Of a DNA stretch of 64,000 nucleotides, positions 40,348 through 52,070 are shown one piece after another. This DNA is from Ostreococcus lucimarinus (taxonomy: Eukaryota): assembly GCA_000092065.1 (NCBI GenBank), contig CP000587.1; one strand, given 5' to 3'. Within the stretch, counting starts at the first letter, position 1; every line of letters begins with the position of its first letter. The notes beneath the pieces are model-generated. The model did no database searches and had not been told where the DNA came from. It saw nothing but the letters and a program-made list of their open reading frames with translations. The translations under genes were made by a program, and so were the position numbers.

Positions 40348-41377
40348 GCGACGAGACGTGCCACGCTTACCCACGCGTGTGCGTGAGTATAATCATCCCG
40401 TTTGTGATAATCCAACGGAATAATACAATATATTTTCGAGCGAACGATTCTCTGATCCCGCGTCTGCGTTGCGCCATAAATTGGTTCGCTATAAATTGGT
40501 CTAATTACAATCACGTTTCGTCAAAACGTTCCGCGTCGCCGGCGCTCAACCGCCGCAGTTCAATTCTTCGTCTTCCGCGGTCGGATTCTACGCCGTGGTC
40601 TCTTTAGGTCTGCGATAAAGCATGATGTGCGGCTCCGGGCGATGGCTGCGCACGCGCGGTGTAAAACAAAGTCAGTCGGCGTCGCGCGTCGCGTCCGCGG
40701 CGCCGGCCTCGCGCGTCGAATCGAAACGACAGCCATCGCTCAAACGCATCCAAAATCACCCGCGCGCGCACTCGATACGTACATCGCGTAGTGTACCCAA
40801 CCTCGGGATTGTTGCACGCCCAATCCGCGCCATTCGGTCTGCGCGCGCGTCTTCGTCAGTCCTCCTTCGTCTCGCGGGGGAAAGAATCCCTCCTTCGCGC
40901 GCGCGTCGTCGACCCGTCGCGTCCTCCCCCGTCTCCATCCCTCGCGCGCACCTCGGTCAACAACCGATTCTTCGGCAACAACTTCGCGATATCCGGCGGC
41001 AACACCACGTGTCTGCGGTCGCGCGCGCGCGCCGTCGTCTCGTCAGTCTCGCAACGTTCGTTTCGTCGCGTCTCGTTTCGATCGTTTCCCGCGTCGCCCG
41101 TCGTCGTCGTCGCCGTCGCGCGCGGCGCCGCACCTGTACTCGTACACGTCGTCGTAGTATTTTTCGCTGTACTGAATCTGCGGCATCGCGCGCGCGGCGT
41201 TCGATCGCGCGGGTCGGTGTGCGGGACGTCCGACAGCTCGCTTTGAATTTTCCTTTCCGCCGCTCCGCTTCCGGGTGTGCGACATGGTCGACGTCGGCGC
41301 GTCGTGGTGCCCGGTTTCGTCGCCGCGAACGAGGCACCACCGCGCGACCGGCGTCGCCGGCACTCGCCCGCGCGACG

Positions 41378-48287: not shown

Positions 48288-48607
48288 CGCGATCGCGACG
48301 CGCGCGCGCGGCGAGGCTCGACGCGCGCGCGAGGCGCGCATCGCGCGCGAGACGCGCGCGCGTCGACGCGCGCGCGCGCGAGACCGCGCGTCACGACGCG
48401 ACGCGCGCGCGGCGTCGGTGAGTGCGGTCGGACCGACGCGCGGCACACGAGCGCGCGCGCGCGAACGACGGCGTCGCGCGCGGTCGCGAGCGCGCGAACG
48501 CGCGGACGCGAACGCGCGCGAACGCGCGGCGGGCGCGAAGGGCGCGCGCGCGGTCGCGCGCGCGACGGGGAGACGCGAAGGGGGACGACGTCACGAAGGC
48601 GAGGAAG

Positions 48608-49378
48608 ATGCGCGCGGTCGACGCGCGCGCGGTGACGACGACGAAGGCGACGACGACGCGCGAGCGCGCGTCACGCGCGTCGCGCGCGTGGTCGACGCGA
48701 GGGAGGGCGACGAAACCGGCGCGGGACGAGAGAGGAGGGAGGCGAGGACGCGGCGGCGCGCTCGAGGCGGCGGCGGAACGCGCGGAGCGAAGCGAAAACG
48801 AAATCTTTAGCGTCGCTCGAGCGCCGGCGTGCGAACTGCTGTCGAATGAGAATGGGGCGTACACGGTGCGGGGGGAGATGACGCTGCGCGGCGTCGCGGC
48901 GTCGAGCGTGTATAATCTATTGACGGATTACGAGGCTTCGCCGCGGGCGTTTCGAGCGGTGCGGAGCGTGAGGGTGATCGAGTGCGAGGGTGATGCGTGC
49001 GTGGCGAGTAATATTTACATCGAGCAGGAGTGTGAATGGAAGTTTTTTGTTTTCGGAGGGGCGTTTCCGTGCGCGTTTGAGGTTGAGGAACGCGACGAAG
49101 AGATGAAGATGAAGTGTTCGCTCGCGCGGGGTCGGCGAGGCACGGGGTTTTTAAAACAGTTTGAGGGGTCGTGGTCGGTGGAGAATACGAGCGAAGGGGT
49201 GCTAATCGAACACACCCTGATGGTGAAGCCGAAACTGACCCCGCCGTACGCGAGTAAAATTTTTGTACAGCAAGTGGAGCAGATTCTCGAAGACGTGGTG
49301 AACGAAATCGAGACGTGGAACGGCGTCGTCTACGGCAAGCCTCCGCATCGCCAGGGCGTGGACGCCTCGATTATTTAA
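48608..49378 (+). CDS. SRPBCC (START/polyketide-cyclase-like) domain protein
   Basis: The C-terminal 200 aa (YTVRGEMTLRGVAASSVYNLLTDYEASPRAFRAVRSV...FLKQFEGSWSVENTSEGVLIEHTLMVKP) fit the Bet v1/SRPBCC fold pattern. The start is taken at the ATG at 48608. Confidence 0.5.
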   Translation: MRAVDARAVTTTKATTTRERASRASRAWSTRGRATKPARDERGGRRGRGGALEAAAERAERSENEIFSVARAPACELLSNENGAYTVRGEMTLRGVAASSVYNLLTDYEASPRAFRAVRSVRVIECEGDACVASNIYIEQECEWKFFVFGGAFPCAFEVEERDEEMKMKCSLARGRRGTGFLKQFEGSWSVENTSEGVLIEHTLMVKPKLTPPYASKIFVQQVEQILEDVVNEIETWNGVVYGKPPHRQGVDASII

Positions 49379-49520: not shown

Positions 49521-51424
49521 CTAAGCGGCGGACGTCAGCACTTCGCTCGCGAAGTACCGCACATCCGCATCGGGGTCGCTTTGAAGACCGACTAGAATAG
49601 GTCTGATTTCGCTCTGGAATTTTGCCACATCAATCGCCTTGATGAGCGGAGAGAGCGCCTTGGCGGCGTTGAAGCGCACGTTGGGCACGGTGTCCGTCGT
49701 AGCATGCTTGATGATTGGCAAGATTTCCCCAAGAATCACTTCTTCGCCGACCGCTGGGGCGAGAAGCGACACCGCTCGTAACACAGTCAAGCGATAGAGG
49801 TAGTGGTGTGACGACATGAGTTCCTTGATGCGTGGAAAAATGTATTCGAGCGCCCAGTCGGCTCCGAAAATCTCCGTCAAGCGGAACAAGTTATTCGCCG
49901 CAGCTTCGCGAATGGAATAAACTGAGTCTTGCAACCATTGCAGACAGAGCGAGTTTAGTAAATCATCACCGCTGTCTGATCCTTCGTCCTTTTGGAACAA
50001 GAAGGTCGTGCCGATCTGTTGCGCTAACACCGGAATGTATTCGATGATAGCTAATCGAACTCGCCAGTGCTTGTCTTCTGCTAATTCTTTGATCGCCGGA
50101 AGAAGCTCAGTAGAAAGCATCTCCACCCCGATTACCGTGTTCACTTGCTCGAGTTTGCTGATGATGTTCAGTCGCACATCCGGAAACTCATCCTTGAGCA
50201 AAATGAAAAACACCGGGAGCAGCTTTTCCACCGTCGTGTCTTTACCCATGGTTGGGGCCAAACCCAATACAGCCTCCGCAAGCGCGGCTCGCACGTGCTG
50301 AGACGAATCATTCGCCAGTTCGTGTACTTTCGGTAAGATCTTTTCCGCGGAGTACACCGCACCCGCGAGTGAGCAAAACTCTGAAATCTTACCGGCGGCG
50401 GAAATTCTAACTTCTCCCTCTGAGTCGCCGAGCAAGGCTACGTACGCGTCAAATAATCCCTTTGCCGCAACCTCTGCGCCTACTACGTCGCACATCTCAT
50501 ATATTTGCTGCGCCACCGCGTATCGAACGCGCCAACTCTTGTCGGCGGCGAGCTTGAGCACTATAGGGACGATCTTGTTCGCACAATCCGTCGCAGAGAG
50601 CAACTTGCCTAAAACCACGCAGTCCTCGACGACGAGCAACCGAACCGAATCTTGATCATCACTCGTGAGCGCCGCGAACATCGTCAGCAACTCGTTCACG
50701 ATGAAATCTCCCGAGCTCACTATGGCAATTTTTCCCAAGTTCTGCGCCGCCGCGCGTCGAACCATGGGCGTCTCGTCGGCGCACAAATCTCTAAACATCC
50801 CGGTCAACGTGTTACGCAACTCCAACTGCGACTCCTCCGAGCGTTCAAACGCGGTCGCGAACAACCCACACGCGCTCACTCGCGCCGTAAACCAATCACC
50901 TTGCGCTAATCTTTCGATCAAAGGCACAAAATATTTCCCAATCCCTCCCGGCGTCATCGCTCGACCCACCGCGCACGCCGTCTCCACCGCCTTGGCCCGC
51001 ACCACCGTCTCCTCTACCGTTATCAGCGTCTCCAACGGCGCCAGGATCACGTGCACGTGTTCCTCCCCGCCGACCGCATCGATCAACGTCGCCAATTCTC
51101 CCGCGATCGCCAGCAGGCACTCATCATCCTCGTCGTCCCGCTCCGCCAAAAACGGCACGAGTTCGCTCCGCGCCCGCTCCGCCCCCAGCGCCTTGGCGAT
51201 CGTCCCCAGCTTCGCGATCGACTTCAATCGCAGCTCCACGTCCTCGCTCTGCGTCGAGCGCGACGAAACGCGTCCTCACCATCGTCAGTCCTCGCGCGCT
51301 TGCCCCGCGCCGCATCGCCGCGTCACCGCGCCGCACTTTAAATCAAATCATCGCCTCGTCCCGATCGCGCGCGCGCCCTCGCGTTATCGCCGCCCGCGCT
51401 CGCGTTCGCGCACCTTGAGGTCAT
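49521..51424 (-). CDS. PP2AA: PP2A scaffold (A/PR65) subunit, HEAT repeats; proposed join(49521..51246,51414..51424)
   Basis: Matches PR65 throughout ([19 protein letters not shown]...[14 protein letters not shown]...). The main ORF has no in-frame ATG at its 5' end. The track's M is GTG. An 11-nt micro-exon ATGACCTCAAG at 51424..51414 is followed by a GTGCGCG donor, a GGACTGACG branch at about 51278, and a CAGAG acceptor. Joined, this gives [11 protein letters not shown] in frame. The exon 1 placement is inferred. Confidence 0.85.
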
Positions 51425-51591
51425 CGATCAGCGCCCCGACGGAGATGGCGTCGTCCTCTTCCGCGTGCGCGGTCGTGGACGGCGCGTCGTGCGACATCGT
51501 GCGAGCGTCGCGCGTCGTCGTGTGCGTCGCGCGACCGCCGATCGGTCGATCGGCACTTCACCGCGCGCGCTCGCGGTCGTCGCGCCGCGCG

Positions 51592-52070
51592 ATGAATCAA
51601 CCGAGCCGCGCCGATCGGTTCGTCCTGCCCGAGGGCGAGCGCAAGCTGTCGTACGAGCGCGACACCAAGGTGGAGAACGCGGGGACGTTCGTGCTGCAGC
51701 GCGAGGACCACACGATTGGAAATTTGTTGCGAATGTGCGTGCGAGCGCGCGCGCGAAGCGAAAGACGCGGCGGGATGACGCGCGAATCGCGCGCGAAATG
51801 ACGCGCGGGATGATGCGAGCGCGAACGACTGACGATGACGACGACGGACGGCGCGAGAACTGTAGGGAGCTGCACAAGAACCCCGACGTGGTGTTCGCCG
51901 GGTACAAGAACCCTCACCCGACGGATCATAGAATCGTGCTCAAGGTGCACACGAACGCGAATACGACGCCGGTGCAGGCGCTGAGGGATGCGGTGACTAA
52001 TTTGCGAGCGGAGGTGGGCGATTTGTCGCAACAGTTTGCGGATGAGATTAACGCGCTTCGACGCGAATAA
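51592..52070 (+). CDS. RPB11: RNA polymerase II subunit RPB11 (POLR2J-like), two exons: join(51592..51734,51866..52070)
   Basis: The spliced 115-aa product ([48 protein letters not shown]|[30 protein letters not shown]...) aligns to POLR2J over its full length. The intron at 51735..51865 is 131 nt. It starts GTGCGTG, has a CGACTGACG branch, and ends TGTAG. It splits a Met codon (AT|G). Confidence 0.88.

Follow-up and report, generated by a model that had tools for sequence, protein, structure and literature searches.

The gene for PP2A scaffold subunit A (PP2A-A, PR65) in the stretch of Ostreococcus lucimarinus DNA analysed here (64,000 nucleotides, hereafter the window) is very probably, with a probability of roughly 0.93, a two-exon gene that starts at ATG 51497, has a first exon with 84 nt of coding sequence and a 165-nt intron, and joins Lys28 to Ser29. 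The earlier note on this DNA had proposed that the gene begins with an 11-nt coding micro-exon; the donor and the branch site of that proposal were right, whereas its start codon, exon size and acceptor were not. The micro-exon does not exist, and no new biology is involved: the gene structure is ordinary and already understood, and an equivalent model is annotated in Bathycoccus. Comparative evidence, which we regard as strong, points to the splicing and the start codon given here for the window organism. The features of the locus are as follows.

51498 to 51591: spacer of 94 nt between the start codons of PP2A-A (minus strand) and of an Rpb11/AC19-like gene (plus strand, ATG 51592)
51592 to 52070, plus strand: RNA-polymerase Rpb11/AC19-like gene, two exons (Pfam RNA_pol_L_2, 1.4e-27)
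51414 to 51497, minus strand: predicted coding part of exon 1, from ATG 51497 to AAG 51414 (84 nt, 28 codons)
51414 to 51424, minus strand: the supposed 11-nt micro-exon ATGACCTCAAG, predicted end of exon 1 (g-AT GAC CTC AAG, D-D-L-K)
51249 to 51413, minus strand: predicted spliceosomal intron (165 nt, phase 0, donor GTGCGCG, acceptor CAG)
51283 to 51290, minus strand: branch motif GACTGACG, with the branch A at 51285, 36 nt from the 3' splice site
49521 to 51248, minus strand: predicted coding part of exon 2, from AGC (Ser29) to the stop codon at 49523-49521, without further intron

Gene model and homology to PP2A scaffold subunits

On the minus strand, the end of exon 1 reads ...GCG CTG ATC GAT GAC CTC AAG, followed directly by the donor GTGCGCG, and exon 2 opens with AGC GAG GAC at 51248. 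An in-frame TGA (51560-51558) lies upstream of ATG 51497, and the frame is then open to the donor (translation of 51560-51414). Apart from ATG 51497, no minus-strand ATG occurs back to the start of the neighbouring gene. Since the 94-nt spacer is free of other minus-strand ATGs, ATG 51497 would be the first one met by a scanning ribosome on any transcript beginning in the spacer, and translation most likely starts there. A transcription start between 51497 and 51424 would drop this ATG, and the conserved peptide with it.

We propose that the transcript starts in the spacer, that translation begins at ATG 51497, the first ATG past the divergent neighbour, and that exon 1 encodes 28 residues ending in a conserved block. 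A U2-type phase-0 intron (51413-51249) would then be removed by means of the GTGCGCG donor, the GACTGACG branch site and the CAG acceptor, joining Lys28 (AAG) to Ser29 (AGC at 51248) to give a protein of 603 aa. The supposed micro-exon would be the final 11 nt of exon 1 in a frame shifted by one base, a shift for which a false AG located 2 nt downstream of the acceptor compensates.

The sequence elements listed in the earlier note are all present on the minus strand: ATGACCTCAAG at 51424-51414, GTGCGCG at 51413-51407, GGACTGACG at 51291-51283 with the inner branch motif GACTGACG, and CAGAG at 51251-51247. The distance between its two exon boundaries was recomputed as 167 nt, as it had stated. 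Likewise, the HEAT-repeat ORF (49521 to 51239) starts with GTG and contains no in-frame ATG from the upstream stop to SEDVELRL, and the proposal of an intron immediately 5' of SEDVELRL is borne out by homology across the joined exons. However, the ATG at 51424 is out of frame, being composed of the A and T of GAT and the G of GAC, and it is preceded by ATG 51497, so that the coding part of exon 1 amounts to 84 nt instead of 11. The acceptor had been set at CAGAG before C (51247/51246), and the one that we take to be true is the CAG before AGC (51249/51248), 2 nt upstream.

If introns of 40 nt or more are considered, six combinations of ATG, GT and AG read open into exon 2. One such match is thus expected at chance level, and openness cannot decide between gene models. 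Since both the frame of the 603-aa product and that of the 579-aa product of the earlier note's model are open, the choice was made by homology. The combination 51497/51414/51248 is the only one that restores the conserved N-terminus of PP2A-A; the four open combinations besides this one and that of the micro-exon were rejected, each of them deleting part of the conserved N-terminal block.

In a phmmer search against PDB chains, residues 19-601 of the query aligned to residues 10-579 of 9j5i_D (PP2A-A beta; E = 4.1e-208), and the alignment ran unbroken across the exon junction, where the target segment is PIAVLIDELKNDDIQLRL. Residues 19-28 of the query align with residues 10-19 of this chain and correspond to PIAVLIDELK, the conserved N-terminal segment in solved structures of PP2A-A. 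Human PR65 alpha was aligned by phmmer from query residue 10 (E = 5e-170), and the Pfam families HEAT (2e-46) and PPP2R1A-like_HEAT (3.7e-36) were matched. Compared with eight reference PP2A-A proteins, the model with the 84-nt exon scored 12-21 bits higher than the model with the micro-exon and 17-28 bits higher than the ORF starting at GTG. Moreover, an alignment of N-termini showed that L23, I24, D25 and L27 are nearly invariant in green algae and human, and the 579-aa product is without this whole block.

Overall, the predicted protein matches PP2A scaffold subunit A (PR65, PPP2R1A/B; plant RCN1/PP2AA) from end to end, in both plant and human chains. It shows the full-length similarity of the PR65 family (about 15 HEAT repeats, about 590 aa), and its LID[D/E]L[K/R] segment is common to the known chains; the N-terminal YPIAVLIDELK/R is contained only in the model with the long exon 1. 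Judging from the PR65 structure, the conserved end of this exon presumably makes up the N-terminal half of the opening helix of HEAT repeat 1. Two parts of the protein distinguish it from its relatives in plants and human. The first is a poorly conserved, acidic and Ser/Thr-rich N-terminal extension of 17 residues relative to PR65. The second is an acidic, Ser-rich insertion of about 10 residues at positions 446-455 (window about 50160-50190, minus strand), which is coding and not an intron, since it is common to other Mamiellophyceae homologues, including the spliced Bathycoccus contig described below. By orthology, the protein may be expected to bind the catalytic and regulatory subunits of PP2A.

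Related loci with and without the intron

A protein search returned two relatives at 82-83% identity and others at 58-59% and 55%, the closest proteins (82-83%) coming from marine metagenome contigs. Five intron-bearing loci were compared: L002 and L008 (82-83% aa identity), L010 and L011 (58-59%) and L007 (Bathycoccus). In all five, exon 1 ends with LID[D/E]LK, the donor is GTG[C/G]G, a CTGAC branch is present, and CAG precedes [S/N]E[D/N]. The donor chosen in the earlier note, AAG before GTGCGCG at 51414/51413, is thereby kept in the related loci, and its branch site GACTGACG has a CTGAC counterpart in the orthologous introns, which are 132-315 nt long and carry this motif 27-59 nt from the 3' splice site. 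The 11-nt frame fared differently, as the ends of exon 1 in these loci show.

L002: last 11 nt of exon 1 ATGATTTAAAG; LIDDLK; 11-nt frame M-I-stop; CAG then AGC, second AG present
L008: last 11 nt of exon 1 ATGATTTGAAG; LIDDLK; 11-nt frame M-I-stop; CAG then AGC, second AG present
L010: last 11 nt of exon 1 ACGAGCTCAAG; LIDELK; 11-nt frame T-S-S, no ATG; CAG then AAC, second AG absent
L011: last 11 nt of exon 1 ACGAGCTGAAG; LIDELK; 11-nt frame T-S-stop, no ATG; CAG then AAC, second AG absent
L007: last 11 nt of exon 1 ATGAGTTGAAG; LIDELK; 11-nt frame M-S-stop; CAG then TCG, second AG absent

The comparison with PP2A-A N-termini and with the 5' gene structures of related algae, by which the micro-exon was to be checked, goes against it, the 11-nt frame being kept in none of the five relatives. 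The second AG, which the earlier note had taken as the acceptor, is missing in three of the five (CAGAAC, CAGAAC and CAGTCG). The final 11 codons of exon 1 show 4 nt differences between L002 and the window, all of them silent: three fall on third positions and one is a synonymous first-position change (CTC/TTA). These differences are the signature of selection on the frame of the long exon. In all relatives, 19-48 codons separate the donor from the first ATG that follows the upstream stop in frame, and the extension ahead of the conserved block is poorly conserved. The gene order is common to the related loci: upstream stands an RNA_pol_L_2 gene in divergent orientation, and downstream a Polyketide_cyc gene in convergent orientation.

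Prokaryote-style gene calls at L002 and L010 (P0002, P0006 and P0015; 673-703 aa) read through the intron and contain a spurious Arg/Pro-rich insert, since in those species the intron has no in-frame stop. The intron length is a multiple of three in L002 (234 nt) and L010 (315 nt), and also in the window (165 nt).

The joined exons can be read in Bathycoccus. Contig L001 (JGI sample 3300037891) encodes the 638-aa protein P0011 with contiguous ...ALIDELKSEDVRLRL..., and it aligns in two blocks to the genomic scaffolds L005-L007 of this species (99.3-100% identity; 99.5-100% for L007). The segment of L007 that is missing from L001 is exactly a 136-nt intron (GTGCGA...ATCAG), and in L001 the exons are joined as ...GAGTTGAAG followed by TCGGAAGAC, with Lys next to Ser. 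By this pattern L001 would be a transcript. The same joined sequence is carried by the NCBI Bathycoccus prasinos protein CAL6358948.1 (638 aa) and others. As in the window, the B. prasinos PP2A-A gene has two exons with a phase-0 intron between the Lys of LIDELK and the Ser of SEDV, a GTGCG donor, a CTGAC branch (40 nt from the CAG acceptor) and the same neighbouring genes. It differs from the window gene in a longer exon 1 (144 nt coding versus 84 nt) and in an AT-rich intron (39% GC, 136 nt, versus 70% GC, 165 nt), and the two proteins share 55% aa identity.

Using the first 89 residues of the 603-aa model as query, we found two further proteins (P0201 and P0202, 77% identity). P0202 is encoded on the Tara METAG scaffold L013 together with the divergent RNA_pol_L_2 gene and the spacer; since this upstream neighbour and the spacer are on the same scaffold, L013 is genomic DNA. 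In L013 the codons GAC GAT CTG AAG AGT GAA GAT are contiguous, there is no intron, and the ORF runs from an ATG; the contiguity of exon 1 and exon 2 is located at 964-1216 in L013 and at 1-253 in the Logan contig L012. This fourth species of the Ostreococcus-like group has lost the intron precisely, and independently shows Lys and Ser joined in the frame of the long exon. The intron is kept in three species of the Ostreococcus-like group, in two Micromonas-like species and in Bathycoccus, and the locus thus offers a small, clean case in which an intron-poor genome has recently lost an intron. Scaffold L013 becomes chimeric beyond position 1216, past a GATGATGAGGATGATG repeat; L012 continues correctly except for a 1-nt frameshift in a G run (about position 310), which splits the ORF into two calls.

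Splice signals and competing readings

Irimia and Roy (2008; PMC2483917) report an atypical donor consensus, GTGCGTG, for EST-confirmed O. lucimarinus introns outside chromosome 2; ACTGAC is present in 87% of these introns and the extended GACTGACG in 66.5%. With its donor GTGCGCG and the GACTGACG branch motif, the PP2A-A intron matches this consensus and is a typical member of the class (PMC2483917): it has the form GTGCGCG...CAG, with the branch motif near its 3' end (51290-51283). This splice consensus, a GC content of about 60% and the gene order shared with Bathycoccus and other relatives point to an Ostreococcus-like alga within the Mamiellophyceae. Removal of the intron is seen for the Bathycoccus ortholog (L001 versus L007) and is implied by the precise loss in L013.

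The motif GACTGACG occurs 8 times in the window, compared with 4.06 expected. About seven other sites in the window show AG before GTGCGYG, then ACTGAC and YAG at similar spacing. These candidate introns have donors at 477, 19123, 39744 and 55293 on the plus strand and at 41133, 40951 and 40771 on the minus strand, with ACTGAC about 90-170 nt past the donor and YAG 17-36 nt after the branch.

In metagenome contigs, no match was obtained to the exact junction that splicing would create in the window species, with either acceptor (GATGACCTCAAG N{0,2} CGAGGACGTGGAGCTG), and none in a degenerate scan of these contigs for contiguous coding of the 13-residue junction peptide. The members of the protein-collection cluster that come from the window species are all unspliced fragments with GTG or TTG starts and are therefore uninformative on the junction.

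A competing reading, very improbable, is that both forms occur, through alternative transcription starts or through alternative 3' splice sites (CAG and AG, 2 nt apart), with the short form as a minor isoform. The two AGs are indeed adjacent, and the second could occasionally be used by the spliceosome at a low level. After the long exon 1, however, use of the second AG shifts the frame, and the short form needs a downstream transcription start in addition to the second AG, neither of which is conserved. The existence of a minor, N-terminally truncated PP2A-A isoform, transcribed from a downstream start, translated from ATG 51424 and spliced to the second AG in CAGAG, has likewise a very slight chance; if true, the isoform would be without the first half-helix of HEAT repeat 1.

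We give hardly any credence to the micro-exon as the regular structure of the gene, that is, to a start at ATG 51424, an 11-nt coding exon, a 167-nt intron, the acceptor CAGAG before C at 51247/51246 and a product of 579 aa. Its elements are present, its donor and branch site are correct and its frame is open, which makes it one of the six open combinations. Yet from the upstream ATG 51497 an open frame leads to this donor and specifies the conserved N-terminus of PP2A-A, whereas the micro-exon deletes the LIDELK segment, which is nearly invariant in green algae and human, and costs 12-21 bits against the reference proteins. Moreover, its frame meets a stop or has no ATG in all five relatives, the second AG is absent from three of them, and both the intron-less species and the spliced Bathycoccus contig join Lys and Ser in the other frame. 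True coding micro-exons measure from a few to about 30 nt and are found, for example, in animal neuronal genes and some plant genes. Only the earlier note's reading resembles them; the open frame reaches 84 nt upstream of the donor, and exon 1 of PP2A-A comprises a 5' UTR and no fewer than 84 coding nt.

A gene without intron (572 aa), translated from a downstream ATG or from the non-AUG codon GTG at 51239, has practically no chance. The list of open reading frames gives the ORF 49521..51239 a GTG start, and metagenome gene calls of the window species begin there, but these calls come from gene finders for prokaryotes applied to a eukaryotic genome. About 30 conserved N-terminal residues encoded immediately upstream behind canonical splice signals would be dropped, and the relatives join both parts by splicing or by precise intron loss. 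The earlier note was right to reject this ORF as the gene model. It had also rightly set aside an ATG (51282-51280) followed by a 31-nt intron (GTGAGG...CAG); this arrangement is present in the sequence, but it has no branch motif, is not conserved and omits the conserved N-terminus.

Consequences for annotation and neighbouring genes

The importance of the two-exon structure is limited to annotation, where it replaces a truncated protein of 579 aa, or of 572 aa with a GTG start, by the complete PP2A-A of 603 aa. In the compact genomes of Mamiellophyceae, attention to the long ORF alone can leave a short first coding exon overlooked or misframed, and the prokaryote-style calls of metagenome protein collections often run on through introns of this kind.

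The 94-nt spacer between PP2A-A and its divergent neighbour must hold both 5' UTRs and the shared promoter region, and the same divergent pairing is found in the related loci. Exon 1 of the Rpb11/AC19-like gene ends at 51734 and is followed by a phase-2 intron of 131 nt (51735-51865) with the donor GTGCGTG and GACTGACG located 33 nt before a TAG acceptor. The spliced product has 115 aa, and the Pfam RNA_pol_L_2 match spans the junction. Downstream of PP2A-A, a convergent gene (48422-49378, plus strand) encodes a Polyketide_cyc (SRPBCC) domain (2.3e-09), its stop codon lying about 140 nt from that of PP2A-A. The Arg-rich N-terminal part of the ORF listed for this gene is probably not coding.
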